Origin: Candidatus Aminicenantes bacterium
GTDB lineage: Bacteria; Acidobacteriota; Aminicenantia; UBA2199
Length of the DNA stretch: 64,000 bases
Direction: 5' to 3'
Assembly: GCA_030610885.1 (NCBI GenBank)
Contig: JAUWQW010000001.1
Coordinates: 5,317-69,316 of the forward strand
Made by a program: the position numbers and the translations under genes. Below the pieces are notes generated by a model. That model had not been told where the DNA came from, did not search any database, and was given only the letters and a program-made list of their open reading frames with translations. Shown piece after piece: positions 6,083-63,081 of this stretch (the stretch's first letter is position 1; each line of letters starts with the position of its first letter).

Positions 6083-6144
6083 TTAATAAAATTGAGATTT
6101 TTTTTATTTTCTTTTATTTAATATATTAGTAAGGGAGGTGTTAA

Positions 6145-8481: not shown

Positions 8482-8573
8482 AATGTTGAATTCAAACTTA
8501 AATAAAAAAGTTATTTTAAAATTATGTTGAAAATTTTTATATATAATATAATTATATGATTAAGGGGGAAAAT

Positions 8574-10502: not shown

Positions 10503-10510
10503 GAGGAACT

Positions 10511-13600: not shown

Positions 13601-13613
13601 TTTTGAATCTTTA

Positions 13614-44727: not shown

Positions 44728-44750
44728 CACCCCATTATTATACATATAAA

Positions 44751-44787
44751 GGGAGGTAGAAGATAAATCTTCTACCTCCCTTTTACT
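44751..44787 (+). terminator. rho-independent terminator after the S46 peptidase gene
   Basis: Perfect 13-bp stem GGGAGGTAGAAGA-taaa-TCTTCTACCTCCC, followed by TTTTACTTT. Confidence 0.75.
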
Positions 44788-44924
44788 TTATTCACAAATA
44801 TAATATTCAAAATCTTATAAAAAACACACATATTTATTGAAATCCATATATATATCATATAATATTTAAATTATGTCTGAAAAGAAATTTTGTATAAGTT
44901 ATAATTTCAGACACATATGCAAGT

Positions 44925-46475
44925 TTGAGTGTAATGTTTAATAAAAAGCTTTCATTTCTTATAGGAACAATAATCATTTTAATGATCATTATGGCATACC
45001 TTTCAGCCCTCAATATTTACCTTAGGGGAGATGACTTTGAATGGCTCAACTCAATATACGGTTGTTGGGAACAGCCATTAAGTTTATTTTCGACAATCAA
45101 CAATTTTTTCAGACCAATGGTTAAGCTTTCTTACCTATTGAATTATACTCTGTTTGGCACAAATACCCCTTTTTATGCAGCAACAACAATCTTGATTCAC
45201 CTTGGGAATGTTTTATTATTGTATATCTTGATTTTGAGAATCACACGCAGAATAATTCCTGCTTCAATCACCTCACTTGTTTTTGGTATTTCCCCGCTAT
45301 ACAGCGAAATTACTTTATGGTCAGCAGCAAGGCCGGACTCTATTATGCTTTTATTTATACTAAGCTCTTTAATCGTAGTAGCCAAACCCGGGAAACAAAT
45401 TAAAAAAAGGGATTTTTTCCTATTATTTATATTTGGATTAGGGGCAGCTTGTTCAAAAGAAACCTGGATTATCCTTCCCTTTGTTTTAATAAGTTTTCTG
45501 ATTTTAATAAAAAAGTATACAATTAGAGATGCAGTAAAGAGCTCTTTTGTGATTATCTTTTTGTTAATATTATATCTGGTTTTTTTTATAGTAGTGCCTA
45601 TAATTTCAAATGCTCCTTCTCCAACAAATTATGCTGACTATGACATGAATTACGGATTGAAAAAAGTAGGGTATTTAATTTTTAAATATACTGGATTTGG
45701 GAATTTATATACGGGTGAAATCTGGCAAATATTGCTTGTTTTTGTATCATTTAGTGGGTTTGGGTTTTTACTCTTTTGTCAAAAAAATAGACTGGCTTTC
45801 TGGGGTATGGCTTTTATGATTCTTTCAATGCTTCCCACTATTCTTATAAAGTATGCACCATCTCGATATAACTATCTTCCTCTTATGGGATTCTATATAA
45901 TGGTAATTGCCTTTTTTGAAAAAGGGATAGAATGGTTATCAAAAAAGTATAAAATTAAGAAAATTTATATATCAATCGTTATTATTACTACCTTAGTCTT
46001 TTATTTATCTTTTCAGTATATTATGTTGCAATGGGAAATAAAAGACTATAAATATTTTGGAAATTCACACAAACAAGTGGTTAATATGTATAATAAGGTA
46101 AAAGATAAATTATCTCTCAATCAACCTATAATTTTTATAAATGCAGGCACTAAAAAAGCTGTAAGTGAAGCGTCACAAAGTGTTCAAGGATATTCCAAAT
46201 TATTATTTGTAAGAAGGCATGGAATATGGCAGATGGTCTATCTTGCTTCTCTGGCAAATTTTTCAGGGAAACCTTTCAAGTATTTGATGATCCCTATTCC
46301 CAAAAAGGAATTGGAAAGTGTAATTAAAGGAAAGTTTAGAGTACTTGTATTTAAAGATAATGGTTTTTCTTTTACTGAAAAATATAATACAAGCCTTAAA
46401 GAATTCTATAATAGATATCACTGCCTTCCAGATCAAGTCAAGGCTCTACAGTTTGTAAACATAAAAAGAGAATGA
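44925..46475 (+). CDS. polytopic membrane protein, GT-C fold PMT/TMTC (DUF1736-type) glycosyltransferase-like, no TPR domain
   Basis: After TM1 there is a DD motif (YLRGDDFEWLNS), then FRPMVKLSYLLNYTLFGTNTPFYAATTILIHLGNVLLLYIL. This is the same pattern as the TMTC-like protein at 55736 (YMPIVILSHTVEFHFFNLNPLPYHTHNLILHLINCILIFYL). There are more than 10 predicted TM helices and a C-terminal soluble domain. Confidence 0.5.
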   Translation: MSVMFNKKLSFLIGTIIILMIIMAYLSALNIYLRGDDFEWLNSIYGCWEQPLSLFSTINNFFRPMVKLSYLLNYTLFGTNTPFYAATTILIHLGNVLLLYILILRITRRIIPASITSLVFGISPLYSEITLWSAARPDSIMLLFILSSLIVVAKPGKQIKKRDFFLLFIFGLGAACSKETWIILPFVLISFLILIKKYTIRDAVKSSFVIIFLLILYLVFFIVVPIISNAPSPTNYADYDMNYGLKKVGYLIFKYTGFGNLYTGEIWQILLVFVSFSGFGFLLFCQKNRLAFWGMAFMILSMLPTILIKYAPSRYNYLPLMGFYIMVIAFFEKGIEWLSKKYKIKKIYISIVIITTLVFYLSFQYIMLQWEIKDYKYFGNSHKQVVNMYNKVKDKLSLNQPIIFINAGTKKAVSEASQSVQGYSKLLFVRRHGIWQMVYLASLANFSGKPFKYLMIPIPKKELESVIKGKFRVLVFKDNGFSFTEKYNTSLKEFYNRYHCLPDQVKALQFVNIKRE

Positions 46476-46498
46476 ATGAAATTCAAATGAGTAGTTAA

Positions 46499-47218
46499 AT
46501 GAAAAAAAATAAAATATTAATTATTATTCCCACTTTTAATGAATGTGGAAATATCAGTATTCTTATGAAACAGATCATTGAAACCGTTTCTAATATTGAT
46601 ATCTTAGTGATTGATGATGATTCCTTTGATGGAACTGCACAGGAAGTAATGGCTTTTTCAAAAGTTACTAAAACAAAAATTGATATTATTGTCCGAAAAG
46701 GAGTTCGAGGCCTTGGGACTGCATATACAACAGGATTCAAATATGGATTGAAGCATCAATATGATGTGATCATCACAATGGATGCAGATCTCTCTCATAA
46801 TCCAGATCATTTACCTGCTTTCCTGGATGCTATTGAGAAATATGATATAGTTGTAGGGTCGAGGTATATTAAACATGGTGGAACGATCAACTGGAGGATC
46901 CGCCGCATTTTATTAAGTTGGCTTGCCAATAAATTTGCCAGGTTTGTATTAGGACTGGGAGGACATGATCTAACATCAGGTTTTCGAGCTTATGGTAGAT
47001 CTATTCTTGAAACAATTGATCTGGATAAAATAAAGTCAAATGGATATTCTTATCTTGTTGAGATGCTTTTTCTTACAAAGAAAAGGGGTGCTCAGATCAC
47101 AGAAATCCCAATTATCTTTGTGGACCGCACAATGGGTAAATCAAAGATATCCAAGCAAGAGATATACAGGGGAGCCTTTACATTGTTGCGTCTCCGCTTT
47201 TTTAGTCATGAACGTTAA
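46499..47218 (+). CDS. GT2-family polyprenyl-phosphate sugar synthase (Dpm1-like dolichol/polyprenol-phosphate mannosyltransferase), soluble form
   Basis: ILIIIPTFNECGNI, DDDSFDGT and DADLSHNP are the GT-A DxD region. 239 aa with no TM segment, typical of a Dpm1/Ppm1 catalytic subunit. Confidence 0.75.
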   Translation: MKKNKILIIIPTFNECGNISILMKQIIETVSNIDILVIDDDSFDGTAQEVMAFSKVTKTKIDIIVRKGVRGLGTAYTTGFKYGLKHQYDVIITMDADLSHNPDHLPAFLDAIEKYDIVVGSRYIKHGGTINWRIRRILLSWLANKFARFVLGLGGHDLTSGFRAYGRSILETIDLDKIKSNGYSYLVEMLFLTKKRGAQITEIPIIFVDRTMGKSKISKQEIYRGAFTLLRLRFFSHER

Positions 47219-48125
47219 TCTAAAATTTGTCAGATGTCCGCTTTGTAATCATAATAACACCCGGCTTATCTATCCAGCAACATCAAAATCCAATCAAATA
47301 AAGCACAAAGACTCTTATATATGTACGAGCACAGGTTTATCAAATCATGGTGATATTGTTCAATGTAAGAACTGTAAAATGGTTTATAATAATCCTCAGC
47401 CAGATGCGGATCAATTGATAAATTTCTATAAAGAGGTTGTGGATCCATCCTATATACTACAGAGTAAAGGAAGGGAACTTACATTTAAACATACTATCAG
47501 TCAACTTCAAGAATACATGAAACCACCCGGGAATTTGCTTGATGTTGGATGTTATACTGGAATTTTTATGGAGACTGCAATTGCTTCAGGTTGGACAGTC
47601 TATGGTGTAGAATTGAGTTCATGGGCAGCATCAATTGCACAGAAATTGGGAAAAGGGGCTGTATTTGAGTGTGCTCTTGATCAGATCCAATTACATTCAT
47701 CCAGTATGGATGTAGTTACAATGTGGGATGTAATTGAACACCTTTCTAAACCAACACAAATTTTAAAAAAGGTTGCTTCTTTGCTCCGGCCAGGTGGTAT
47801 TTTGGCATTAAGTACATATATGATTGATAGTTGGGCAGTAAAAGTGCTTGGAAGAAGATATCCTTTTTTTATGGATATGCATGTTGTTCATTTTTCAAGA
47901 GATACTCTATCTCGTATGTTATGTATGTTGGGTTTTGAAATCCTAAGTATAAGAAAACATAAGCGTACGATTATACTGGATTATCTTTTGGACAGGACAT
48001 GGAATTTATTACCTGTGTTAAAACCAATGCTCAAACCTTTAGCTCGCTGTCAATTGATTAAAAAGCCAATAAATCTTAGCTTTATGGGACTTGTAAATGT
48101 CTATGCGCGCAAAAAAAATTCTTAA
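47208..48125 (+). CDS. class I SAM-dependent methyltransferase with N-terminal Cys4 zinc ribbon
   Basis: The zinc ribbon is CPLCNHNN...CKNCKM. The SAM-binding motif is LLDVGCYTGIFMETAIASGWTVYGVELS. Motif II is VVTMWDVIEHL. ATG 47208 overlaps the upstream GT2 gene by 11 nt. The track ORF from 47040 is an out-of-frame overlap artifact. Confidence 0.7.
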   Translation: MNVNLKFVRCPLCNHNNTRLIYPATSKSNQIKHKDSYICTSTGLSNHGDIVQCKNCKMVYNNPQPDADQLINFYKEVVDPSYILQSKGRELTFKHTISQLQEYMKPPGNLLDVGCYTGIFMETAIASGWTVYGVELSSWAASIAQKLGKGAVFECALDQIQLHSSSMDVVTMWDVIEHLSKPTQILKKVASLLRPGGILALSTYMIDSWAVKVLGRRYPFFMDMHVVHFSRDTLSRMLCMLGFEILSIRKHKRTIILDYLLDRTWNLLPVLKPMLKPLARCQLIKKPINLSFMGLVNVYARKKNS

Positions 48126-48209
48126 ATTTTTTAAAACATTTCTCTGAAACCCTGTACAATTAATAAATTCGTTTTGCTTTTATGGGAAAAATTTAATAGA
48201 ATTGTAAGT

Positions 48210-49481
48210 ATGAAAAAATTTTCAGTAGATCTTATTGAGGATAATTTTTTTCATGATTTCACTTATGATTCATATAATAGAAAAGAGTATATTTTTAAGA
48301 AAAAAACGGGAATATTAAAAAGAGAATATAATGAAAGCTGGCTTAGCAGTTCTTTTGAGTTAAACTCAATAAATGATGCAAAAGCATATATTTCAAAGGG
48401 TTTTAAATCTTCAAGTTTTAAAAACTTTAAAACCAATAACATTGAGTTTAGCCCAGGTAAAGTGTTAAGAGACAATGAATTTATTTTAAATTTTTTACGA
48501 TCACTTGATTTAAAAGAATGGAAGATCGTATTTAGAGTAAAGGCATTAAACCGCCTTATTATTAACAATAAAAATAAAGGATTGAGAAATGGATTTACAC
48601 ATTATAGTATTATAATAAAATTAAAATTAAATAACTGTAGAAATTACATTGAGATTGGAGAGGGATCAACTGGTAGCTTTAAATTCAATCAAACAGGGCT
48701 TAGCTTGAGAATAAAAGATGTGATTAATAATCATAATAATAAAATAAAAAATGATTTTAAGGATAGAATTCCAGTAATTCTGAACTCAGGTGATGGAGGT
48801 ATAATCTTTCATGAAATCCTTGGGCATTCATTAGAGGTTGATTATATTTATCAAAAGTTGTCTCCAATATCAATATATGATGTGGGACATCAAATAATAT
48901 CAAAAAATGTAAATTTAGTTGCTGATTACGAAGGAGATATGTTTTTCTCAAACAGAATGTGTGATGATGAAGGAGTATCCTCAAAATCTTCTATGTTAGT
49001 TGAGAATGGAATATTAAGGAACTTTATTTCAGACATTTATTATAAAAATCTGTTAAATATAAAAAATTCTGGTTATTCAAGGGTAGAAGATTTTTCAAAA
49101 GTTCCAATGCCGAGAATGTTTGCAATTTACTTAAAACCAGGCCCCTATAATGCTCAAGAGTTAATTGAATCAACAAAATATGGAATATATGCAAAAGAAT
49201 TTGGTGAGGGAAAAACTTATTTTAATAAAAATTCATTTTTCTTTAATATAAAAGAGGCATATTTGATTGAAAATGGTAAACTTACTTCTCCTCTTGGTGA
49301 TGTTATTGTGAAAGGAAATATTATGGAAACCTTAAACTCAGTTGATATGGTAGCTGATGATTTCAGATATGACAAGGGTATCAGTTATTGTTTCAAGAAT
49401 GGCCAGACATTAAATGTCAGGGTTGGTCAACCAACAGTTAAGATAAATAACCTTTTTGTTAAAAGTGGTTTAAATGATTGA
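48210..49481 (+). CDS. tldD: TldD-family metalloprotease
   Basis: TldD/PmbA fold with HExxxH (FHEILGHSLE) and the conserved GxC..DDEG region (MCDDEGVSS). An alternative TTG start lies at 48174. Confidence 0.7.
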   Translation: MKKFSVDLIEDNFFHDFTYDSYNRKEYIFKKKTGILKREYNESWLSSSFELNSINDAKAYISKGFKSSSFKNFKTNNIEFSPGKVLRDNEFILNFLRSLDLKEWKIVFRVKALNRLIINNKNKGLRNGFTHYSIIIKLKLNNCRNYIEIGEGSTGSFKFNQTGLSLRIKDVINNHNNKIKNDFKDRIPVILNSGDGGIIFHEILGHSLEVDYIYQKLSPISIYDVGHQIISKNVNLVADYEGDMFFSNRMCDDEGVSSKSSMLVENGILRNFISDIYYKNLLNIKNSGYSRVEDFSKVPMPRMFAIYLKPGPYNAQELIESTKYGIYAKEFGEGKTYFNKNSFFFNIKEAYLIENGKLTSPLGDVIVKGNIMETLNSVDMVADDFRYDKGISYCFKNGQTLNVRVGQPTVKINNLFVKSGLND

Positions 49482-50766
49482 GAAAATACTCTTACAAGGA
49501 AAAGCTGCCGGGTTTTCAACAGTTGAGGTTTTCCATGAAAAAAGGGAGAAACAGGAATATGAGAAACTTTTAGATTATAATGCTTCTCATTTCGTAAAGA
49601 ATGATAATATATCAGTCAGAGCTTTCTGGGAATTTGGAGAGCCTGTTGGATTTAATTTGTCAAAACCTGATATAAAATCAATTAAAACAGGATTTTCAAG
49701 TGTTTGTTCTTTAAATATTCCAGGAAGAAATAAAAATTATGCATATTTATTACCCTCACATGCTCAAAAAGTAAAGATAAATATTTTTGATGATTCTATA
49801 AAAAGCTTTGATATAAAGAAATTTGATGAGTTAGTAGAAAAGATCAAAGAAATTCTTGTATCTTTTCCAGGGCTTTCTCTAAAAAGAATTAAGTTTTTTA
49901 AAGTGTTAAAGAAATGTTATATTTCAAATACTAAATGGCTTAATGCTAAATATAAAAAAACAAATTTCAACCTGACTATTAATTTTGAATATAAAAATAA
50001 TTCAATTGAAATAAGTGAGAATGAGATCTATTTTAATCGAATAAATCCATTCAGAATGATTTCAAGAGCGTTTAATTTATTAAATTCTCTTACAGATAAT
50101 AATATACATATCAAAAAAGATTGTGCTTTAATATTTTCTCCTGAAGCATCTGTTTTTGTCTTAAGAGAGTTTTCTGATAATTTTTGTTTAAGCTTTGAAG
50201 GGAGTTTAAAAAAAATAAGTTTCCCATCAGTATTAAGTATTATTGAAAATCCTAATCTGGATTATCAGACTGGTTCTGTGCCGTTTGATGATGAAGGCGT
50301 TCAATCAGGAGAAAGATATTTAGTAAATAAGGGTGTTTTTTTGGATCGGATTTCAGATATAAAGAGAGCTTTTTACAACAAAAGAGCTTGTTCTACAGGT
50401 AATGGTTTTAGGAGTGATAAGTCAATATTTCCATTTCCAAGGTTTTCCAACTTTTTCATTAAACCTTCGGTTTTAAGTTTAAATAAATTAATGATGGATG
50501 CAGGAAAAGGTATTCTTGTTTCTTTAATTAAATTAAAAAATATTGAGAATGATGAATGGATGTTTTCTGCATATGGTTACAGGTTTGAAAATGGAGATAT
50601 CAATGAGCCTGTCCATTTTTACTTTAAAACCTCTTTTTTTTCATATTTTCTGAATATATTAAAAGTATCAAAAGAGATAAAATTTTTTAATATAAATTAT
50701 AATATTGGATCTCCATATTTGCTGGTTAATGCAAAGCATTTGTATGAAAGTGTTCTTCAAATTTAA
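49474..50766 (+). CDS. TldE/PmbA-family protein, partner of TldD
   Basis: Second TldD/PmbA-family paralog, lacking HExxxH. Conserved PFDDEGVQS region. It overlaps tldD by 8 nt, the usual TldD/TldE pairing. Confidence 0.6.
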   Translation: MIEKILLQGKAAGFSTVEVFHEKREKQEYEKLLDYNASHFVKNDNISVRAFWEFGEPVGFNLSKPDIKSIKTGFSSVCSLNIPGRNKNYAYLLPSHAQKVKINIFDDSIKSFDIKKFDELVEKIKEILVSFPGLSLKRIKFFKVLKKCYISNTKWLNAKYKKTNFNLTINFEYKNNSIEISENEIYFNRINPFRMISRAFNLLNSLTDNNIHIKKDCALIFSPEASVFVLREFSDNFCLSFEGSLKKISFPSVLSIIENPNLDYQTGSVPFDDEGVQSGERYLVNKGVFLDRISDIKRAFYNKRACSTGNGFRSDKSIFPFPRFSNFFIKPSVLSLNKLMMDAGKGILVSLIKLKNIENDEWMFSAYGYRFENGDINEPVHFYFKTSFFSYFLNILKVSKEIKFFNINYNIGSPYLLVNAKHLYESVLQI

Positions 50767-52028: not shown

Positions 52029-52493
52029 ATGAGAAAAATAATGAAAAGCAAAAAGGGTTTTACTTTGATTGAGCTGTTAATCGTTATTGCAATTATTGGT
52101 ATTATTGCAGCTATTGCTATTCCAAATCTATTAACTGCTCTTCAGAAAGCTAAACAGAAAGCAACAATGGGTGATATGAAATCTATTGGAACTGCTGTTG
52201 AGTCTTATATGACTGATAATTATTTGGCACCAGGTACTATTACTGACGCTGATATTACAGTTTTTTACATGAAAAAAATACCAATTTCAGATGGATGGGG
52301 TAATGGATGGAACTATACAAGAGGCGGAACAGCTTTCGATGAATATTCAATCGGTTCAGGTGGAAGAGACGGAAGTTTTGGCGGTTTTGGTCAGTTTCAG
52401 ACAGTACCTTACATTGTAAATACTCTGTCTGGTTTTGACAATGATATCATCTTTTCGAATGGAACTTATACTTTCGGTCCAAGAGTAAAATAA
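52029..52493 (+). CDS. prepilin-type N-terminal cleavage/methylation domain protein (type IV pilin or GspG-like major pseudopilin)
   Basis: Class III signal peptide MRKIMKSKKG|FTLIELLIVIAIIGIIAAIAIP, with Gly-1, Phe+1 and Glu+5. GspG-like LTALQKAKQKATMGDMKSIGTAVESYMTDNYLAP. No Cys residues. Strong Shine-Dalgarno sequence and its own terminator. Confidence 0.8.
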   Translation: MRKIMKSKKGFTLIELLIVIAIIGIIAAIAIPNLLTALQKAKQKATMGDMKSIGTAVESYMTDNYLAPGTITDADITVFYMKKIPISDGWGNGWNYTRGGTAFDEYSIGSGGRDGSFGGFGQFQTVPYIVNTLSGFDNDIIFSNGTYTFGPRVK

Positions 52494-52507
52494 TTTAAAA
52501 ATCCTTA

Positions 52508-53950
52508 ATGAAAAAAAGCAGCTGGATGATTGTTCCAGCTGCTTTTTTTTTTCTCTTTAATTTTTCTATAAGTTCATATAAAACTCTCTTTTTTTTACGT
52601 TTAATATATTTTCTCTTTTTGATTTTTCTCTTCTTTTTTTTAAGAAGATTCAATTTGAAAAGGATACTTATACCAATTGTCGGGGGAATTTCTCTAATTT
52701 TGTTTGTATATGGTATCCTTCAAAAATTTATTCTGTTTCCTTATTATTTAAGAAACTTAGGTAATGAAAATAATTTCTATTTCCAGGCTTTTAAAACAAG
52801 ATTGGAGACAGGAAGAGTTTTCTCATTGTTCACATTACCCTCTCTGTATGCAATTATATGTGCAGTATTGATCTTATTTATTTTTCACTATTTTTTAAAA
52901 TCAAAAAAAAATAAGATTTTTTGGGCTATATTATTAATTTTAGGTATAATCAATATAGTTTTAACCCAATCTTTTGGGGGAATCTTATATTTATCCATTG
53001 GTATTTTAATTTATCTCTTCTTATCAAGAATTTTAAGTTTCAAGTATCTTGCACCTGTTATTATGGTTTTATTTCTCTTTTTTTTCATAGTAACAGGATT
53101 AAGATATTCAGAGGCAAAAGAACTCGAACCTGTTAAATTAAGATTCTCAAACTGGAAACAGGCTTATAGAGCAATAAAATCAAGCCCCATTTTGGGAATA
53201 GGGCTTGGGAATTATGAATCAAAAATCTCTTATTTTACTTTTACCGGAGAGGCAAAGTCTGTTTATGCACATAATTTTTTCCTTCAGTTTATTTCAGAAC
53301 TGGGCGTAATTATTTCTCTTTTTATTTTACTGATTTTATTTTTGTCAAAAAAGAGGCTAAAACCTGAAAATTCTAACGAAAAGGTTTTGTATATTTCAGC
53401 TTTCATTATTATGTTAGTGTATAATTTAATTGATATTGGGTTTTATTTCTTTTCTGCTGGAATAATAACTGTTGTGCTTGTTTCTCAAATATATGAAAAA
53501 AAGAATAAAAAGTATAAACTAAACCTTGGTATTCTTATATTATTATCAATTTGTTTAATGGTGCAAACTTTTTCGGATAATTATCAAAAAAAAGCCAGTT
53601 TTCTTTTAAGTCAAAAGAGTTTTGAAGAAGCGGAAATTTATTATAAAAAGAGTCTTAAAATAAATCCATTTAATTTTAAATCTTTAACTGGTTTGGGAAA
53701 CATCAATTTCATTAAGAACAACTATTTGGAATCTGAAAAGTATCTAAATAGATCATTGAAACTATATCCGGATTCTGCTTTTGCTAATTACTTGAAGTCA
53801 AGGCTTGATTTTAAGAAGGAACACTTTTTGAATTCTTTATATCGCGCAAATTTAGCATTTAATAAAAACAGATTAAATTTTGAATACAAGAGGTGGTATG
53901 AGTTTATCAAGAATAATACACAAATTGAACTCAGTAAAACAGGAATTTGA
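52508..53950 (+). CDS. O-antigen ligase (Wzy_C) family membrane protein fused to C-terminal TPR repeats (candidate O-oligosaccharyltransferase)
   Basis: About 10 TM helices with the Wzy_C loop motif (YAHNFFLQFISELGVI). C-terminal TPR repeats (FEEAEIYYKKSLKINPFNFKSLTGLGNINFIKNNYLESEKYLNRSLKLYPDS). The annotated ATG 52508 lies inside the pilin terminator hairpin. The true start may be downstream, for example the in-frame TTG near 52661 (LKRILIPIVGG). Confidence 0.55.
   Translation: MKKSSWMIVPAAFFFLFNFSISSYKTLFFLRLIYFLFLIFLFFFLRRFNLKRILIPIVGGISLILFVYGILQKFILFPYYLRNLGNENNFYFQAFKTRLETGRVFSLFTLPSLYAIICAVLILFIFHYFLKSKKNKIFWAILLILGIINIVLTQSFGGILYLSIGILIYLFLSRILSFKYLAPVIMVLFLFFFIVTGLRYSEAKELEPVKLRFSNWKQAYRAIKSSPILGIGLGNYESKISYFTFTGEAKSVYAHNFFLQFISELGVIISLFILLILFLSKKRLKPENSNEKVLYISAFIIMLVYNLIDIGFYFFSAGIITVVLVSQIYEKKNKKYKLNLGILILLSICLMVQTFSDNYQKKASFLLSQKSFEEAEIYYKKSLKINPFNFKSLTGLGNINFIKNNYLESEKYLNRSLKLYPDSAFANYLKSRLDFKKEHFLNSLYRANLAFNKNRLNFEYKRWYEFIKNNTQIELSKTGI
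52517..52553 (+). terminator. rho-independent terminator after the pilin gene (bidirectional A-run/T-run flanks)
   Basis: AAAAAAA-AGCAGCTGG-atgattgtt-CCAGCTGCT-TTTTTTTTTTT. The 9-bp GC-rich stem is followed by 11 T. Confidence 0.75.
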
Positions 53951-55709
53951 ATTTTTTATAATTCTGAGTTGGATTCTTTTTTTTCCTAAAAAGGAATCTC
54001 TCTTCTATTTTTTGATATTTGCACTTTTAATTATTTTATTTTCTATTAGAAATATTTATTCAATCAAAAATATAGTAGAATCTTTATTTTTGTATGTTCT
54101 TGTATTTTTAAACTTATTATTCATAATCAGTATATTTTTTTCCTCATATAAACTCAAGTCAATTCTTCTGCTTTTAGACATTTTTCTTATTTGTATTTAT
54201 TTTGCATTATTTTTTTATGATAAAAATGATGAACAAAAATATTTCTTTTTGATTTTGTATTTAATATCTCTTTTTTCTATTATAAATATTCTTAATTATT
54301 CTTTTTCAATATTTGAGGAGAAAAATCTTTTTTTCTCAAATCCAATCATGCAGGGGCTTATTTCTGGTATTGGTTTGCTTATAGCTTTTTATTATATATT
54401 AAAAAGATTCGATTGGATTTTCTTTGTATTAATGATTTTAAATTTAGCAGGAGTTTTTGTTTCAGCCTCAAAAGCAGCTTTTATAGGAGTTGTGATTTTT
54501 TCTTTTGTATTGATCATTCTTAAAAGAAAGAGATTAATCCCTTTCTTAATAATCCTTATTATATTGACATTTATTATTCCAAATCCCATAAAAAATATGT
54601 TTGAGTTTTCATTAACAAAGGACCCATATGCTTTTAATAGGATCGATATATGGAAAATGTCTATAAATATTTTTAAAGATAATTTTTTGTATGGTGTAGG
54701 ACTCGGAAATTTTTCCGAGGTTTCAAAAAAATACAATTTTAAGCAAACAAAAGGACCTGCAAATTATTTCAAGGTTCCTCGAATTCCTCACAATGATTAT
54801 TTAAAGCTTTTGTGTGAAACAGGTATATTTGGATTGATAATTTTACTTCTATTTATATTTTTTATTTTAAGAAAGATATTTTCCTCTTCTTTATTTAATA
54901 TATCAAAAATAATAATCCTTTATTTATTATTTAATGCATTTTTGTTTAATATAATGTTTCATACATTTTTCTTTTTTATGTTTATCTTTTTGTTGAAAAA
55001 TTTATTCGAGGAAAATATTAGTTTTAAGAGTATAAACGGAAATTTTAAATTAATATTTTCACTTTTATTAATTTTTATTTTTTTAGTTGGCTATTTTGTC
55101 CCTTATATATCCAATAATTTAATTGAAAGGTCAAAAAAGAGTAAGAATATCATAGAAGCCTTCAAACTATTGAAGAGATCAGAGTATTTAAACCCTTTAG
55201 ATTATCGGGTATATTATCGCAAGTCTTTACTGCACTATAATTATTTTGAGAGAAAATCGGATCTGGATTCTTTTTCTTATGCTTTGAGAAATATAAAAAA
55301 AACTCAGATGTTGAATAAGCATTTTATTGAGTCTTATTTATTAGAATCTGATTTATATCTTGAGGTATTAAAAAAAGAACTTAAGTATATTTCTATGGAT
55401 AAGGAGATAATTGCTCCTTTAATTAAAGCTGAGTTTTATGCACCATTCGATCCATTCATTAAATTAAAAAAGGCTAAAATTTATTTTGAATTTAATAATA
55501 AAAATCTTGCAAAAAGAGAGGCTATAAAAGCTTTAGATATAGAACCGGAGTTTATTTCAGCCCTATATTTTCTTCACAATAGATTTAATTATTTTTCTGA
55601 TGAGGAAAAATTTAAAAATAGGATAGATAAAATTTTAGCTAAAGCTAAAAAATTAGATTATCAACATGGAACCTATTTGGATAATTTATTTAAGGTCCCA
55701 CAGAAATAA
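53898..55709 (+). CDS. second O-antigen ligase (Wzy_C) family membrane protein with C-terminal TPR-like region
   Basis: Polytopic, with the Wzy_C motif IPHNDYLKLLCETGIFGL. C-terminal TPR-like helical repeats (EAFKLLKRSEYLNPLDYRVYYRKSLLHYNYF..., AKREAIKALDIEPEFISALYFLHN). It overlaps the upstream paralog by about 50 nt. The start is uncertain (ATG 53898 or TTG 53880). Confidence 0.55.
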   Translation: MSLSRIIHKLNSVKQEFEFFIILSWILFFPKKESLFYFLIFALLIILFSIRNIYSIKNIVESLFLYVLVFLNLLFIISIFFSSYKLKSILLLLDIFLICIYFALFFYDKNDEQKYFFLILYLISLFSIINILNYSFSIFEEKNLFFSNPIMQGLISGIGLLIAFYYILKRFDWIFFVLMILNLAGVFVSASKAAFIGVVIFSFVLIILKRKRLIPFLIILIILTFIIPNPIKNMFEFSLTKDPYAFNRIDIWKMSINIFKDNFLYGVGLGNFSEVSKKYNFKQTKGPANYFKVPRIPHNDYLKLLCETGIFGLIILLLFIFFILRKIFSSSLFNISKIIILYLLFNAFLFNIMFHTFFFFMFIFLLKNLFEENISFKSINGNFKLIFSLLLIFIFLVGYFVPYISNNLIERSKKSKNIIEAFKLLKRSEYLNPLDYRVYYRKSLLHYNYFERKSDLDSFSYALRNIKKTQMLNKHFIESYLLESDLYLEVLKKELKYISMDKEIIAPLIKAEFYAPFDPFIKLKKAKIYFEFNNKNLAKREAIKALDIEPEFISALYFLHNRFNYFSDEEKFKNRIDKILAKAKKLDYQHGTYLDNLFKVPQK

Positions 55710-55735: not shown

Positions 55736-57484
55736 TTATTTGTGTTTAATATTTCTTTTGTTATGGTTAAGTTTTGAAATCTTTTTATATATTATTTTTA
55801 GTTTATCATTTGATTGTTCTTTTTTATAAATTTCTATTAAACAATAGTAAGAGGGGAGAAACTTAGGATTAATCTTGATTGTTGAATTAAAATCAGAGAT
55901 AGCCTGTTTAAAATTGCACTTGTCACTATATGCAATTGCTCTATTAAAGTAAGCTATAATATAATTTGGAGCAAGTTCTATAGCAGAACTATAATCTCTT
56001 ATTGCAAAATCCAGTTTGCTTTTCTTTGCATAAGCAAATCCACGATTATTAAATGCTTTTGCATATCTTGGATTTAACTCAATTGACTTATTATAATCTT
56101 TTATTGCCTTTTCATAATTGGCCTTATTACTGTATGCAAGGCCTCTATTATAAAAGGTTTCATAATTAGGGTGAATTTTTAGAGCCATACTAAAATCTGA
56201 AATAGCATTGTTTATATACCCTTTTTTTGCAAAAGCTGATCCTCTATTGTCATAAACAATATGAGTTGGGTAACTTTTAAGAGCATCATTCCATAATGTT
56301 ATATCATTTTTCCATACATGGCATTTTTGCCAGCTCAAGAAGGATAAAGTGAATAAGATTCCACTTAGAAATATTAACAATGGTATCCTTACTAACCATT
56401 TTTTCTTAAATTTTTTGTTAAATAAATCAATTAGTAATTTGCTTATTAAATAGAATATCCCAATAGAAGATATATAAGTATATCTGTCAGCATGTGGGAA
56501 ACCGTCTAATATAAGTGGGATTATTGGAATTAGCGTGATTAGTAAAAAAAGAAATCCAAAAATAAATTCTCTTCTGTATTTATTTGAAAAGTAGATTATA
56601 ATAATCAGAACAACTATTGTAAGAACAAAAACAGTAAGTGGGTTTGGGAAAATTTCATTAGCATGGATAGGATAACGTGGTGATAGCTTTAAAGGTAAAA
56701 ATATTTTGCTTAAATAAAAGGGTACACTAATTAAAACGTTTAAAATACGCTCTGAAATCGTTAAATATGTAGGTGGCTGGTCAATTTTCAGAACCCACAT
56801 TCCAATTATACCAAAGATAAATGAGATTTCAAAAAAGGGAACTTTTTCAATTATTTTTTTTTTATTTATATTTCCTTCAAAATAGAAATCAAAAAGTATT
56901 AATATTAAAGGGAAGATTACAGTTGTGATTTTCGATAATAAAGCAAATATAAAAATGATTAGACTAAAATAAAAAAAAATCCTTTTTTTTGGTTTTTCTC
57001 TATAAATCAGGTAAAGTATTAAAGCTATTAAAAGGAAAATTGAACTAATAAGGTCCTTTCTATCTGAAATCCATGCAACTGATTCTACACGCAGGGGGTG
57101 AACTCCCCAGAGAAGTGTTGTTAAAAGAGATATTGAATAGGATTTACTTAATATTAAAATTAGATAAAATATGAGTATACAATTAATGAGATGAAGAATA
57201 AGATTGTGTGTGTGATAAGGAAGGGGATTGAGATTGAAGAAATGAAATTCTACTGTGTGTGATAAAATTACTATTGGCATATAGAGCCCCAAAAATGTAG
57301 AAGTAAAAATATTTTTCAGGTTTTTAAACGAGAGTTCTCTTATTGATTGATTTTGTGTGACATAAGCCTGGTCATCCCAATTGAGAAAACCATTATTTAA
57401 TGATGGAAGAAAAACAAGAGTAGTTATTATCAATATAAAACAGATTGAAATCAACCTTTTTGTAGATGAGCTCATTTTTATCAT
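55736..57484 (-). CDS. TMTC-like protein: GT-C fold PMT/DUF1736-type membrane glycosyltransferase domain fused to C-terminal TPR repeats (candidate protein O-mannosyltransferase)
   Basis: N-terminal polytopic domain with DD in loop 1 (NGFLNWDDQAYVTQN) and YMPIVILSHTVEFHFFNLNPLPYHTHNLILHLINCILIFYL. Four or more C-terminal canonical TPRs (YDNRGSAFAKKGYINNAISDFSMALKIHPNYETFYNRGLAYSNKANYEKAIKDYNKSIELNPRYAKAFNNRGFAYAK...). Confidence 0.6.
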   Translation of the reverse strand: MIKMSSSTKRLISICFILIITTLVFLPSLNNGFLNWDDQAYVTQNQSIRELSFKNLKNIFTSTFLGLYMPIVILSHTVEFHFFNLNPLPYHTHNLILHLINCILIFYLILILSKSYSISLLTTLLWGVHPLRVESVAWISDRKDLISSIFLLIALILYLIYREKPKKRIFFYFSLIIFIFALLSKITTVIFPLILILFDFYFEGNINKKKIIEKVPFFEISFIFGIIGMWVLKIDQPPTYLTISERILNVLISVPFYLSKIFLPLKLSPRYPIHANEIFPNPLTVFVLTIVVLIIIIYFSNKYRREFIFGFLFLLITLIPIIPLILDGFPHADRYTYISSIGIFYLISKLLIDLFNKKFKKKWLVRIPLLIFLSGILFTLSFLSWQKCHVWKNDITLWNDALKSYPTHIVYDNRGSAFAKKGYINNAISDFSMALKIHPNYETFYNRGLAYSNKANYEKAIKDYNKSIELNPRYAKAFNNRGFAYAKKSKLDFAIRDYSSAIELAPNYIIAYFNRAIAYSDKCNFKQAISDFNSTIKINPKFLPSYYCLIEIYKKEQSNDKLKIIYKKISKLNHNKRNIKHK

Positions 57485-57566
57485 TATAAAAGAATTTTAA
57501 AGAAAAATAAAATTATGAGTGTTTATATAAAAGTAGATAGAAGAATTGGTAATCTAAAAAAAATAT

Positions 57567-59423
57567 TTATTGGCTTATATAACTGATTTTAAAAACAAAG
57601 AGATTGTTTTTTCTGAAAATCGGTTTTAGAGTTCTTATAAAAGAGGAGAATTTTTTTAATTCATTTTCACTCATTCTTTTATAATCTTTTTGCAGGCGTA
57701 TGAATTCTCCCATATTAAATATAATGAAATTGATTTTGTCTTTTTTTAATTCATTAATAAATTCTTTTTTATTATTACTATTTTTTAAATATCTTTTCAA
57801 AATTGAGTAGTCATATGGAGAAGATACCTGATAGGCACGCTTTAGATAAAAGTTCCTGGATTCTCCCACAATAAGGATTTTTGACTCCTTTGTGGAGTTT
57901 TTATTGATAAAAGATATTGCAGGATAGGTTGGGAAGGTTAAAGTTTTGTATTCTTCAATGCTGAGCTTTCCTGAAAAGAGATAATATGAGCGAAAAATGC
58001 GCTCCATCAAAGCAAAAGATGTTAAGAGATTTAAAAATATAATGATAAAAAAGATATATTTTATGATCTTTTTTGATTGAGATTCATAAGCAATTACAAC
58101 ATATATTGATAGAAATAAAAAAGAAATATACCAGCAACGAATACTCATCTTAAAAAAAGCTCCCGCAAAAATCGTTAATAGAGAAAATATAAGTAAGAAG
58201 TAATTTTTTTCTTTTTTTAGTATAAGAAATGGTAAAAAAATCAAAAATAAAGCTCCAATAATTCCACCTGAGCCTAATTGGGAAAATGATATGTTGTAAG
58301 GGAATTTAATCACATCCTTGAAAGAGTGAAACACCTTGCTTGTATCTTTTGTCATTACAGCAGACCTTGAGGAATCCCAGAATTCACTTTTAAAAGAGTT
58401 GTGGAAAAATGGGAAAACGGGATTATTTGTAAAATTGTAATTTTTTATCATTAATGGCAATAGTATTCCTAAAACAATCAATCCGAAGATAATTGCTTTT
58501 TTTGAATCAAACCATTTTTCTTTTATAAATATGGCAATGAAAAAGATTCCCAGGGGAATTATATTTGTGTATTTCACACCTATACTGAAGCCCCAGAATA
58601 TAGCAGATATGTTCACCCTTTTTTTTAAAAAATATTTTATGCCAATAAAAATGAAAAACGCACTTAAAAGATCATTCTTAACTATTGATATAAGGAACAC
58701 ACTCATTGGCATAGAGATTATGGTTAATAATAATATGTTTCTTTTCTTTATTTTAAAATTTTCAATTGCAAAATCTATAATAGAAAATATTAAGATAATT
58801 CCTATAAAAAAGTGGAAAAAACGTGGGACCATATCTCCAGCAAAAACAGATGGTATTAATGAGATCTCATAATAGATAGAGGTGTTTGCGTATAAAAATT
58901 GTAGGGCTGAAATAAATCCCGAATTTTGAAGATAAAGGTTTGGTATTCCAAGGTGAAAAACTAAGGTGTCATAAAAAGAGGATGGAAGAGAAGCATATAT
59001 TAATGGGAAAACGAAAATAAGGTATTCAAGGGATGGTCTTTTAATAAAAGAATTTATTGTTTTATAAAAATTTGATTTATGATTTTTAATAATAAAAAAG
59101 AGAATTATTACTGGAATTAGATAAAAGAGTATAATTATCCAGGCTGAGAGAATTTTGAAGAATGATATTATAAAGAAGAAAAATGTTGTGAAAATTAATC
59201 CTGTGCCAAAGCTTTCTAATACTCCGATTTTTCCCTTATTAAAAAATTTTATAAAGAAAAAACCATAGATGAATATTTCAAAAATTAATAAAAGAGCCTT
59301 TAGAAAAGGAAGAATTACATAAATAGGGTATCTAAGGAAAAGTGCATTGATGGTTACTAAAATTGCAAAAATAATAAGAATATTTATTATAAATTTATTG
59401 GATTTGATATTATCAATATTCAT
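57567..59423 (-). CDS. large polytopic integral membrane protein, function unknown (possibly another GT-C-like enzyme)
   Basis: 618 aa with more than 12 hydrophobic segments across the whole length. I recognise no soluble domain. Co-oriented and closely spaced with the downstream radical SAM/GT2 genes. Confidence 0.4.
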   Translation of the reverse strand: MNIDNIKSNKFIINILIIFAILVTINALFLRYPIYVILPFLKALLLIFEIFIYGFFFIKFFNKGKIGVLESFGTGLIFTTFFFFIISFFKILSAWIIILFYLIPVIILFFIIKNHKSNFYKTINSFIKRPSLEYLIFVFPLIYASLPSSFYDTLVFHLGIPNLYLQNSGFISALQFLYANTSIYYEISLIPSVFAGDMVPRFFHFFIGIILIFSIIDFAIENFKIKKRNILLLTIISMPMSVFLISIVKNDLLSAFFIFIGIKYFLKKRVNISAIFWGFSIGVKYTNIIPLGIFFIAIFIKEKWFDSKKAIIFGLIVLGILLPLMIKNYNFTNNPVFPFFHNSFKSEFWDSSRSAVMTKDTSKVFHSFKDVIKFPYNISFSQLGSGGIIGALFLIFLPFLILKKEKNYFLLIFSLLTIFAGAFFKMSIRCWYISFLFLSIYVVIAYESQSKKIIKYIFFIIIFLNLLTSFALMERIFRSYYLFSGKLSIEEYKTLTFPTYPAISFINKNSTKESKILIVGESRNFYLKRAYQVSSPYDYSILKRYLKNSNNKKEFINELKKDKINFIIFNMGEFIRLQKDYKRMSENELKKFSSFIRTLKPIFRKNNLFVFKISYISQ

Positions 59424-59428
59424 ATTTT

Positions 59429-60862
59429 CTATTTAGTTTTTCTCATAAAAATCACTTTAAGCCCTGCTTTTGTCTTTCTTTTAAATTCTCCAAAAGAGCT
59501 TACTTTGAACAGATTTTTAATTATATAGGAAGGCCTTGTGTAGAATGTTTTGTACCCTTTTATAAGGAGCTTTTCAAGCTCTTGTCTTGTGAAATTTTCT
59601 TCCCAGCATGGAGGTTCAAAATTTTCATCCGGGTTCTCAGCAAATTCTTTCCATACATCATTTTTAAAAACCCCTTTTGATAAACCCTGTATATAAATAT
59701 CTGTTGCAGGAAATGGAGTAAGTATGGTCATATGAACAAAATCAGGTTTTAACCATTTTGATACTCTGAAAGTTTCAAAAATATCTTCTATTGTTTCATC
59801 AGGAGAACCTATCATAAAGTAAGCTAAAGTCTGGATTTTATATTTTTTTGTGAGTACGAATATTTCTTTTGCTTTTTGTAATGTAATACCCTTTCTCAAA
59901 ACTTTGAGAATTTTTTCTGTTCCTGCTTCAATGCCATAATGTATTCCTCTACATCCCGCCTTTTTTAATAATTGCAATAATTCTTCATCAAGAGTATCGA
60001 CTCGAGCTCTTATATCAAAGCCAATATCAAGGTCTTTTTTTATTATTAATTCACATATTCTCTTTACTCTATCTTTTCTTACTGTAAAAGTGTCGTCATA
60101 AACTAAGAATTCATGTATTCCCAGTTTCAAACATTCCTCAATCTCTTGTACAACTCGTTCAGCACTCATTGCCCTGAATATGTTTCCAAGATGAGGTCTA
60201 TTGCAAAATGAGCATTTATATGGGCATCCTCTGCTTGTGAAAAGCGTTGTTATTGGTGTTCTTTTGGCTAAAATGGAGGTGTATTTTTTATATGGAGTTA
60301 ATTCTCTTTTTGGAAAAGGGAGTTTATCAAGTTCATTTTCAGGAATTAGTACAGGCAATCCTGTGTGTACTATTGTCCCATCCTTGTTCTTATATACAAG
60401 CCCTTTTATGTCCTTTAATTTTTTAAAATCATATATATTATCAATAAGTTTAGCAAATATCTTTTCACCTTCACCCAAAACCACGAAATCAACACCTTTG
60501 ATGTTTATAGTTTCTCTTGCATATATATTTACATGAGGTCCGCCAAGAACTAATTTACATTCAGGTTTTATCTTTTTTACAATATTTATGGTTTTTATAA
60601 CATCAATAAGTGTAAATGTCATTGCTGTTATTCCCACTACTTCAAAATCTGTGTGTTTTATTCTTTGTTCCAAAGAAGCATAGGTTAATTCTTCTACTTG
60701 AGAATCAATTACATATACTTTGTGTGCTGTTTTTTCGAGTAAATAACCTGCAAGGAATAAAAGCCCCAGAGGCGGATTGTATCCTCTTTCTGATTCTATT
60801 ATAGATGGGTTATTCCCCATTAATTCATTAAAAGAGGGTGGATTGATAAGTAATATATTCAT
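59429..60862 (-). CDS. B12-binding domain radical SAM protein (class B radical SAM, candidate methyltransferase/sugar-modifying enzyme)
   Basis: N-terminal cobalamin-binding Rossmann-like region (ILLINPP...PPLGLLFLAGYL), then a radical SAM core with LFTSRGCPYKCSFCN (CxxxCxxC). 477 aa. Confidence 0.8.
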   Translation of the reverse strand: MNILLINPPSFNELMGNNPSIIESERGYNPPLGLLFLAGYLLEKTAHKVYVIDSQVEELTYASLEQRIKHTDFEVVGITAMTFTLIDVIKTINIVKKIKPECKLVLGGPHVNIYARETINIKGVDFVVLGEGEKIFAKLIDNIYDFKKLKDIKGLVYKNKDGTIVHTGLPVLIPENELDKLPFPKRELTPYKKYTSILAKRTPITTLFTSRGCPYKCSFCNRPHLGNIFRAMSAERVVQEIEECLKLGIHEFLVYDDTFTVRKDRVKRICELIIKKDLDIGFDIRARVDTLDEELLQLLKKAGCRGIHYGIEAGTEKILKVLRKGITLQKAKEIFVLTKKYKIQTLAYFMIGSPDETIEDIFETFRVSKWLKPDFVHMTILTPFPATDIYIQGLSKGVFKNDVWKEFAENPDENFEPPCWEENFTRQELEKLLIKGYKTFYTRPSYIIKNLFKVSSFGEFKRKTKAGLKVIFMRKTK

Positions 60863-60873
60863 TTTATATGATG

Positions 60874-61737
60874 CTAATTGTTCCTTTTATTTATCATATC
60901 TGCAAGCATTCCTATAGCAAGTATTTGAATAGATGAGATAAAAAGTATTGAAACAGTTGTATCCAATATTTTGGGAAGAGCTAAATAGCTATATATAAAA
61001 ACTATTAAAGAGATTAAAAGCAAAATTAAGCTAACAGGAACAAATATTTTTAGAGGATTAAAATACATTACTGTTCTGATAATGAGTTGAATAAAGTTTA
61101 ATGTATCACGTATTGGTCTTATCTTACTTTTACCCTTTCTTTTCATGTAGTTTATTGGAATATATTTAATTTGCATATCATTGGTTAACATTGCAAGTGT
61201 TATTGTGGTTGTAAAGGAAAAACCATTTGGTAAGATTTTGAAAAATCTTAAAGCATCTTCTTTTTTAAAAAGCCTGAGCCCTGAATTTATGTCTGGAATT
61301 TTAAATCCAGCAAGGTAATTTGCTAATTTTCCTATAAACCATTTTGCTGGTTTCCTTATAATTGGGATTTTTACACTTTTCCCTGTCCTGGAACCTACAA
61401 CCATATCATAATTTTTGATTTTATTATACATTTCAGGAATCTTTTCTATTGGGTAAGTGCCGTCAGCATCAGTAATTGCAATTACATTATATTTACTTTT
61501 TTTAATTCCTGATTTTATGGATGCTCCATATCCCATATTTCGTTCATGTTCAATTAAATTGAAGTTTATCTTACTCTGTTTTAGAGTTTTGTTTGTATTA
61601 TCTGTTGAACCATCGTTAACAATAATAATTTCATAATTTTTTAGATCACTCTTTTTGAGAATAGTATCTATTTTGGTAATTGTTTTTTTTATATTTTTTT
61701 CTTCATTATAAACAGGTACTATTATTGATAAGCTCAA
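60874..61737 (-). CDS. GT2-family polyprenyl-phosphate glycosyltransferase (GtrB/ArnC/Dpm1-like) with C-terminal TM helices
   Basis: LSIIVPVYNEEKNI, VNDGSTDNT and DADGTYP are GT-A motifs. There are two C-terminal TM helices (LKIFVPVSLILLLISLIVFIY, ILFISSIQILAIGMLA), typical of membrane-anchored polyprenyl-P-sugar synthases. Confidence 0.8.
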   Translation of the reverse strand: MSLSIIVPVYNEEKNIKKTITKIDTILKKSDLKNYEIIIVNDGSTDNTNKTLKQSKINFNLIEHERNMGYGASIKSGIKKSKYNVIAITDADGTYPIEKIPEMYNKIKNYDMVVGSRTGKSVKIPIIRKPAKWFIGKLANYLAGFKIPDINSGLRLFKKEDALRFFKILPNGFSFTTTITLAMLTNDMQIKYIPINYMKRKGKSKIRPIRDTLNFIQLIIRTVMYFNPLKIFVPVSLILLLISLIVFIYSYLALPKILDTTVSILFISSIQILAIGMLADMINKRNN

Positions 61738-61782
61738 AAAAGCCTCCTTTTTTGTTGAAACTTCTTATAAATTTATTTAGAT

Positions 61783-62421: not shown

Positions 62422-62448
62422 TTTTCCCCCAGAAATTTTTCATAATAA

Positions 62449-63078: not shown

Positions 63079-63081
63079 TTT

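Follow-up and report, generated by a model that had tools for sequence, protein, structure and literature searches.

A candidate three-component glycosylation operon with a zinc-ribbon methyltransferase in Candidatus Aminicenantes

We analyzed 64,000 nucleotides of the Candidatus Aminicenantes contig JAUWQW010000001.1 (GenBank assembly GCA_030610885.1; GC content of about 29%), a stretch that we refer to as the window. At positions 44,925 to 47,218 it encodes a multi-pass membrane glycosyltransferase of the GT-C type followed by a soluble family 2 glycosyltransferase (GT2), which an initial annotation had read as a candidate pair for polyprenol-phosphate-mannose-dependent protein O-mannosylation. 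A third gene, encoding a methyltransferase, had been overlooked. Here we describe this triad and argue that it is, on balance, probably a module for the decoration of the cell envelope with a tailored sugar.

Three same-strand genes form a predicted operon

The features on which the analysis rests are the following.

44748..44783, + strand: intrinsic-terminator-like hairpin with a 16-bp stem and a T-rich tail; ends the upstream S46 peptidase gene
44877..44905, + strand: sigma-70-like promoter match CTGAAA-17-TATAAT (10/12; consensus match only), 29 nt 5' of the ATG of the GT-C gene
44934..46475, + strand: GT-C glycosyltransferase, 513 aa from the ATG; the open reading frame opens with a TTG at 44925 (516 aa)
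46499..47218, + strand: GT2 of the Dpm1/Ppm1 type without transmembrane segments, 239 aa; polyprenyl-phosphate hexose (probably mannose) synthase by homology
47208..48125, + strand: class I S-adenosylmethionine (SAM) methyltransferase with an N-terminal Cys4 zinc ribbon, 305 aa; fold nearest to MtmC/KijD1/TcaB9
55736..57484, - strand: GT-C paralog bearing tetratricopeptide repeats (TPRs), of TMTC-like architecture; outside the operon, reference for paralogy

The reading frames, the 23-nt gap between the first two genes (46476-46498) and the lack of transmembrane (TM) segments in the GT2 are as the initial annotation had described them. We placed the start of the GT-C protein at the ATG at 44934, which gives 513 residues, because database homologs begin there. 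The start of the methyltransferase gene overlaps the stop of the GT2 gene by 11 nt. Judged by the upstream terminator, the short gap and this overlap, the three same-strand genes are predicted to be one operon, and the hairpin is its predicted 5' boundary. A scan for sigma-70-like promoters found 26 sites where 22 were expected in shuffled sequences, which makes the promoter match weak evidence when taken alone. The operon lies between the S46 peptidase gene upstream and TldD/PmbA genes downstream. The latter, a TldD/PmbA-like metallopeptidase pair (48174-50766, + strand) located 3' of the methyltransferase gene, may be co-transcribed with the triad: no terminator-like site was found in between. 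The pair does not stand beside the triad in any other locus examined. The nearest public relative of the operon is found in a Candidatus Aminicenantes metagenome-assembled genome (MAG; locus L008), where the GT-C protein is 86% identical.

The membrane protein is predicted to adopt a GT-C fold

An AlphaFold2 model of the membrane protein, built with 44 homologs, reached a predicted local distance difference test score (pLDDT) of 88.3 and a predicted template modelling score (pTM) of 0.89. It displays 11 TM helices in an N-in/C-out arrangement (hydropathy gives nine peaks), a long first outer loop with two short helices and a C-terminal extracytoplasmic alpha/beta domain of about 120 aa (residues ~395-513). 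When the model was compared with the PDB using Foldseek, all top matches were GT-C enzymes, namely ArnT, the oligosaccharyltransferase (OST) subunit STT3 of yeast and human, PglB, DPY19, Pmt4 and AftB, each with a probability of 1.00 and with TM-scores (TMq) of 0.41-0.49. Judged from the model, membership in the GT-C superfamily (GT-C-A) is settled and the subclass is not, as the protein lies about equally near to ArnT, OST/PglB, DPY19 and PMT.

Sequence families were less informative. Pfam and NCBIfam scans of the whole protein, of its TM part and of its C-terminal domain separately gave no match even at E<=10, and the same was true for the TM part of the TPR-bearing paralog. PF13231 (PMT_2) was recognized in nine of the 44 family members, the window protein not being among them, and a search of all PDB sequences with the family profile returned nothing relevant. 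Among 1.84 billion cluster representatives, 168 were found by the profile at E<=1e-30 and 30,009 at E<=1e-10. By these counts the protein appears to belong to an uncharacterised subfamily of about 170 clusters at 50% identity that lacks a Pfam or NCBIfam model, while the wider family is very common in bacteria and hence unsurprising in a Gram-negative lineage. The initial annotation had called the finding unexpected in such a lineage, which was overstated also because full-length TMTC homologs have already been described in many poorly characterised prokaryotes (PMC7801869).

Residues that are invariant or nearly so among the 44 members include D33-D34-F35, R60-P61, H89, E125, R133-P134-D135, K175-E176, R311 and Y314, together with D371 and with R427, the latter two being listed with the C-terminal domain. 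The presumed catalytic Asp pair, whose retention the initial annotation had asked about, is present: D33 and D34 of the first extracytoplasmic loop are conserved in 44/44 members and in at least 90% of 85 remoter relatives.

The GT-C protein shares motifs with TMTC proteins and with a TPR-bearing paralog

The TMTC1-4 proteins are characterized by seven motifs, M1 DD, M2 SHKSYRP, M3 RxD, M4 KE(T/Q)xxT, M5 DW, M6 PxxP and M7 ERxxY (PMC7801869). Five of the seven are carried by the GT-C protein (M1-M4 and M7), with partial agreement within M2, M4 and M7. The M2 equivalent reads NNFFRP (F58, R60, P61), M3 is R133-P-D135, M4 is K175-E176-T177 without the last T, and M7 is S-R311-Y-N-Y314 with S in place of E. 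DW (M5) is absent from the 226-262 loop. Neither DUF1736 (PF08409), which occupies the TM7-TM8 loop of TMTCs, at E<=10 nor a TPR was matched by Pfam in this protein, the C-terminus of which is formed by the alpha/beta domain instead.

The TPR protein encoded at 55736-57484 is similar to the GT-C protein in BLASTP (34% identity over 140 aa, E 7e-10) and is matched by the GT-C family profile in hhalign with a probability of 98.2% (E 5.6e-14) over 317 columns that span TM1-TM10. This similarity goes far beyond chance and marks the two proteins, at the sequence level, as true paralogs, one with and one without TPRs, as had been proposed. The motif string that the initial annotation gave for both is real as a loose consensus; in detail, the spacing before 'LS' is three residues and not two, and 'NP..YH' fits the paralog better. 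The paralog's own motifs are DD, YMP, RKD, K-I-T and DRYTY. At its residues ~180-186 KET thus reads K-I-T, by which the Glu assigned to metal binding in the TMTC model is lost, unlike in the TPR-less family where K-E is invariant.

The paralog gene is part of a minus-strand cluster of glycoconjugate type (55736-63801), which also encodes a 618-aa membrane protein of the LIC_10190 family (NCBIfam 1e-10, below the cut-off), an HpnJ/BchE-like B12-binding radical SAM enzyme, a 287-aa GT2, a PIG-L deacetylase, a small methyltransferase and a WbqC-family protein.

We wondered whether the GT-C protein might be a protein Ser/Thr O-mannosyltransferase of the TMTC/PMT type that is served with polyprenyl-phosphate mannose by the GT2, with a methyltransferase that is irrelevant or methylates the protein-linked mannose. 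The five TMTC motifs and the TMTC-type 11-TM, C-out topology of the model speak for this explanation, as does the fact that in hhalign the GT-C family is far nearer to the TPR paralog (98%) than to E. coli ArnT (0.7%). Conceivable targets are at hand in the form of PKD-domain surface proteins encoded in the window. On the other hand, the protein lacks the TPRs, the MIR domain, the DUF1736 signature and the DW motif, and a function has yet to be demonstrated for any TMTC-like protein of bacteria. PMT enzymes were not favoured by the fold search either (Pmt4 E 3.7e-3; Pmt1/2 aligned over only ~270 columns), and PF02366 (PMT), MIR (loop 5) and PMT_4TMC found no Pfam match in the protein, which places it outside PMT/GT39. 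Taken together with the genomic comparisons described below, we regard protein O-mannosylation by this enzyme as possible but on the whole unlikely.

The PKD proteins are encoded at 4400-12523 (+ strand), where a gene for a CHAT-domain protein is followed by those for three large proteins. Of these, two have PKD and BiPBP_C domains and probably reside at the surface or are secreted. A further locus in the window bears on protein glycosylation. At 52029-55709 (+ strand) a type IV pilin/T2SS-G-like gene (N_methyl and T2SSG, 154 aa) directly precedes two genes for Wzy_C (O-antigen-ligase-type) membrane proteins, one of them with TPRs. A pilin gene beside a gene for a Wzy_C protein is the layout of protein O-oligosaccharyltransferases of the PilO/TfpO/PglL type. 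This cluster may be the better candidate for protein O-glycosylation in the window than the GT-C operon.

Similarity to ArnT is structural and does not extend to the sequence profile

The single best Foldseek match of the GT-C model was ArnT in a full-length alignment (5f15 E 1e-4; 5ezm E 3.9e-4). The initial annotation had held that a best structural match to ArnT would speak against kinship with PMT or TMTC. Taken literally this is what we found, but it carries little weight: OST, PglB, DPY19 and Pmt4 follow close behind, and the comparison does not discriminate because ArnT is also the nearest solved structure for the human TMTCs (PMC7801869).

One might nevertheless envision an ArnT-like system in which a lipid-linked (methyl)hexose is put on lipid A phosphate or core sugars, altering the charge or permeability of the envelope. 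Apart from the fold match, this idea draws on the size of the protein and on its C-terminal globular periplasmic domain, both of which resemble ArnT, on the parallel between a tailoring enzyme that accompanies the synthase and the GT-C and the ArnC/ArnD/ArnT arrangement of the E. coli operon, and on a diderm host (genes for OmpA, OEP and Wzy_C occur in the window). The TM-scores are only 0.46-0.48, however, and equal to those of OST/PglB; the model has 11 TM helices and not 13; the synthase lacks TM segments and resembles DPMS more than ArnC; and equivalents of ArnA/B/D/E/F are absent among the operon neighbours. Profile similarity to E. coli ArnT was not detectable, the hhalign probability being 0.7% (E 0.079) in a comparison whose sensitivity is limited by the single-sequence template. 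We therefore consider an ArnT-like system unlikely. Orthology of the GT-C protein to ArnT was rejected by the failed profile test together with the gene context.

The soluble GT2 resembles polyprenyl-phosphate mannose synthases

The GT2 matches PF00535 at 8e-27. Its nearest solved relative is the dolichol-phosphate mannose synthase (DPMS) of P. furiosus (PfDPMS, 5mlz; E 2.6e-28, 36% identity over 218 positions), and the matches to ArnC (~1e-11; 2.7e-11) and GtrB (5e-5) are far weaker. In PfDPMS, 13 residues contact the donor, the metal or the acceptor phosphate (PMC5526996). Ten of these 13 are kept in the GT2, namely E12, D39, D89, D91, H94, R117, R131, S135, R202 and K208. D39 is the guanine-recognition position, and the metal/donor motif reads DADLSH. 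We found no TM segment: the maximal Kyte-Doolittle mean over 19 residues is 1.3, and no segment attains 1.6. Homologs of the GT2 are 235-290 aa long, and automatic annotation calls them polyprenol monophosphomannose synthase or dolichol-phosphate mannosyltransferase. The GT2 itself falls far short of every NCBIfam equivalog cut-off.

These data identify the GT2, by sequence, as a predicted polyprenyl-phosphate hexose synthase of the Dpm1/Ppm1 type, in line with the initial annotation, and its sugar is most likely mannose donated by GDP-mannose. A DPMS-like synthase also fits the protein O-mannosylation explanation discussed above.

The coupled methyltransferase may act on a sugar

The methyltransferase matches Methyltransf_23 at 4e-25. 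An N-terminal zinc ribbon is indicated by four Cys residues (C10, C13, C53 and C56) that all 45 homologs share. With an AlphaFold2 model of pLDDT 92.6 as query, the only Foldseek matches to cover most of the protein were MtmC, KijD1 and TcaB9 (4rv9, 5t6b and 3ndi), with TMq values of 0.57-0.63; MtmC reached E 9.6e-16 and TMq 0.63. TcaB9 and KijD1 are also within reach of the family profile (~1e-10 to 1e-11), whose alignments with KijD1 and MtmC begin inside the zinc ribbon. The predicted fold thus suggests that the enzyme acts on a sugar substrate.

The methyltransferase also provides an argument for a loose association of the three genes, in which the GT2 would be a housekeeping polyprenyl-phosphate-mannose synthase for several GT-C enzymes including the TPR paralog. 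The substrate of the methyltransferase would then be some other lipid, for instance a polyprenyl quinone. UbiG is among the best solved relatives of the methyltransferase by sequence (E 8.3e-10), its homologs are named quinol methylases in the source annotation, and the JGI annotation is of UbiG type. Moreover, the window holds several further GT-C-like genes, and some GT-Cs of the family stand alone. This contrasts with the three-domain zinc-ribbon fold, which matches nucleoside diphosphate (NDP)-sugar methyltransferases and not UbiG, and with the conservation of gene order reported in the next section: the start-stop overlap of the GT2 and methyltransferase genes is kept down to 37-40% methyltransferase identity, and a second clade of GT-Cs replaces both partners non-orthologously by the same two enzyme classes. 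A loose association is very unlikely in our opinion.

Gene order is conserved and partner enzymes are exchanged across lineages

We explored the genomic context of the family in 37 fetched loci by hidden Markov model (HMM) and tblastn scans. Besides the window, 11 distinct loci showed the order GT-C>GT2>methyltransferase. They belong to Aminicenantes, Omnitrophota, Moduliflexus and other MAGs, and their proteins are 38-86% (GT-C), 58-89% (GT2) and 42-92% (methyltransferase) identical to those of the window. The overlap of the GT2 stop and the methyltransferase start is maintained across lineages. Chance adjacency of the three genes was rejected on the grounds of this conserved synteny.

Orthologous GT2>methyltransferase pairs also occur without this GT-C. 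In L029 and L030 they are followed by the gene for an unrelated 522-aa multi-TM protein, and in L031 and L033 a second methyltransferase gene lies upstream. Because the pair exists independently of this GT-C, the methyltransferase appears to belong with donor synthesis and not with the GT-C.

Relatives of the GT-C employ other partners. In a clade of Thermoanaerobaculia and Sulfomarinibacter (clade B), the GT-C proteins of which are ~31% identical to the window protein, the usual upstream genes encode an ABC transporter, a non-orthologous methyltransferase of 250 aa and a GtrB-type (UDP-hexose type) synthase of 307 aa with C-terminal TM helices (E 3.7e-66 to GtrB 5ekp); some members lack the 250-aa methyltransferase, the GtrB-type synthase or both. 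That both partners are swapped for non-orthologous enzymes of the same classes argues for sugar-tailoring enzymes that feed the GT-C. In L036 (38-3797) the gene for a remote GT-C (~25% identity) comes after those for an epimerase/dehydratase, a hexapeptide-repeat transferase and a TM-less GT2, the last of which overlaps the GT-C start with its end. This tailoring layout is reminiscent of Arn and Lgm. Other remote relatives stand alone. The GtrB-type and epimerase/acyltransferase partners suggest that the GT-C family is tied to tailored lipid-linked sugars and is not bound to mannose. By this comparison the GT-C lineage would work with interchangeable lipid-phosphate-sugar synthases and tailoring enzymes, the Aminicenantes-type clade using a methyltransferase tied to its synthase.

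These findings affect the pairing proposed by the initial annotation in two ways. The link between GT2 and GT-C is upheld by conserved synteny, whereas evidence for a protein Ser/Thr acceptor was not found. A plain O-mannosylation pair leaves the conserved methyltransferase of the triad unexplained, and the synthases and epimerase/acyltransferase partners of the relatives are typical of glycan or lipid decoration.

Several neighbours recur in these loci. In clade B, the (methyltransferase)-(GtrB-like GT2)-GT-C genes are in every case immediately preceded by a set that encodes an ABC ATPase, an ABC-2 permease and a 286-aa protein (L005 1684-4228; L018, L020-L022, L025). The set persists even where the methyltransferase and GT2 are lacking and could supply an export or flipping component. 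Proteins of 522 and 551 aa encoded beside remote GT2>methyltransferase pairs were considered as members of the same GT-C family and rejected. The 522-aa protein (L029) is homologous to a 579-aa membrane protein encoded beside clade B GT-Cs (28% identity, E 4e-28). The two represent an unannotated multi-TM family of 520-580 aa (L005 7473-9212, - strand; L029 6968-8536, + strand) with an N-terminal 'ADPDFWWHL'/'TSIGWHL' loop and a C-terminal soluble domain, for which neither a Pfam match nor similarity to the window GT-C family was found. It may constitute a further GT-C-like component that draws on the same donor pathway. Homologs of the recurrent neighbours unk579, unk286, unk470 and unk258 were not found in the window. 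Directly downstream of the triad in L001-L003 (L001 9452-12960) are genes for a 350-aa radical SAM protein and cysteinyl-tRNA synthetase; the same genes lie at 12542-15005 (- strand) in the window, ~30 kb from the triad, pointing to local rearrangement.

A model for sugar tailoring and transfer at the envelope

On balance, we think it probable that the operon encodes a three-component extracytoplasmic glycosylation module which follows the logic of Gtr and Arn systems and decorates the cell envelope with a tailored sugar. As judged by homology, the soluble GT2 would work on the cytoplasmic side of the inner membrane, where it would load polyprenyl phosphate with a hexose. This hexose is most likely mannose, with GDP-mannose as its donor. 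The zinc-ribbon methyltransferase, whose gene is translationally coupled to that of the GT2, would then methylate the sugar, either as the nucleotide sugar or in its lipid-linked form, a step suggested by gene coupling and fold. A flippase, for which we have no candidate, would carry the lipid-linked sugar across the membrane. At the periplasmic face the 11-TM GT-C would pass the single tailored sugar to an acceptor, as its fold, motifs and topology suggest, using the Asp-Asp loop as well as phosphate or metal contacts by K175/E176 and R311. Choice of the acceptor could be made by the family-specific C-terminal alpha/beta domain.

Several observations weigh against this model. No flippase candidate was found in the operon, the window or the scanned neighbours, and GT-C members without either neighbour exist (L004, L012, L021 and L025). 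As to the identity of the sugar, the GT2 differs from PfDPMS by Q93S, F177Y and K178S, K178 being a mannosyl contact, and the Haloarcula DPMS homolog AepG is reported as a glucuronosyltransferase (PMC9943897), a precedent for the use of other sugars by DPMS homologs. As to the substrate of the methyltransferase, its Rossmann core is about as similar to UbiG and generic class I methyltransferases as to sugar methyltransferases, and with 305 aa it is ~110 aa shorter than TcaB9 (~416 aa; TMt 0.44-0.47). Apart from antisense artefacts, the window holds no small multi-TM reading frame that could encode a GtrA-like flippase.

Which molecule receives the sugar? A protein is favoured by the motifs of TMTC type and by the kinship with TPR paralogs. 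A glycan or lipid is favoured by the lack of a protein-binding repeat, by the ArnT-like size and C-terminal globular domain and by the sugar-tailoring context in relatives. Of the two, we hold an envelope glycolipid or glycan, such as lipopolysaccharide (LPS) or another polysaccharide, to be slightly more likely than protein Ser/Thr. A bolder version of the model, distinctly unlikely in our view, holds that the GT2-coupled methyltransferase makes a methylated polyprenyl-phosphate mannose, a donor not described before, and that the TPR-less TMTC-type GT-C puts methyl-mannose on envelope proteins. If true, TMTC protein O-mannosylation would have an equivalent in Gram-negative bacteria that employs a tailored sugar. 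If the acceptor is LPS or a glycan, the operon would be a routine addition to the Gtr/Arn-type systems.

In the literature searched, we found nothing pertinent on a GT2, methyltransferase and GT-C system, on methylated lipid-linked mannose or on glycosylation in Aminicenantes. Bacterial homologs of human TMTCs are very numerous and none has a known function. As a compact system, the operon could be brought to expression in another host, and synteny already suggests its donor pathway. Its study could give this GT-C subfamily its first assigned activity, could show whether methylation of carrier-linked sugars exists as a tailoring step and would add to the envelope chemistry of the uncultivated Aminicenantes and Acidobacteriota.

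Comparison with known systems

Three-component systems that operate with polyprenyl-phosphate sugars include GtrA/GtrB/GtrC, ArnC/ArnD/ArnT and the CsbB/YfhO type of B. subtilis. Common to these systems and to the proposed module are clustered genes, cytoplasmic synthesis of a polyprenyl-phosphate monosaccharide by a GT2 and the use of this sugar by a GT-C outside the membrane. The carrier-linked sugar may be tailored by an additional enzyme, a part that ArnD plays in the Arn system. The operon differs in that its synthase is TM-less and DPMS-like rather than GtrB/ArnC-like and in that the tailoring enzyme is a methyltransferase, for which the literature searched holds no described precedent. 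Unlike in Gtr systems, no flippase gene is linked to the operon, and the GT-C subfamily is without a Pfam or NCBIfam model.

With the NDP-sugar C3-methyltransferases TcaB9, KijD1 and MtmC, the methyltransferase shares the layout of a Cys4 zinc domain at the N-terminus and a Rossmann SAM domain after it. It is only 12-15% identical to them and ~110 aa shorter, and no genes of a 4-keto-sugar pathway lie nearby.

In the actinobacterial Ppm1 and Pmt and the eukaryotic Dpm1 and PMT pairs, which the initial annotation had invoked, a soluble DPMS-type catalytic domain likewise supplies a GT-C enzyme. The GT-C of the operon is not a GT39 enzyme, having neither PF02366 nor MIR and DD instead of DE; the genes of the operon are adjacent and coupled to a methyltransferase gene, and a membrane anchor partner such as DPM3 or Ppm2 is not evident.

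From TMTC1-4 the GT-C protein is set apart by its ~120-aa alpha/beta domain in place of the TPRs, by the absence of DUF1736 and DW and by relatives that use other synthases. In common with TMTCs, the topology of which was derived as 11-TM (PMC7801869), it has 11 TM helices with the C-terminus outside and carries DD, (Y/F)RP, RxD, KET and the Arg and Tyr of ERxxY. A lipid-phosphate mannose donor, predicted for the operon from the homology of its GT2, would be a further trait shared with these proteins.

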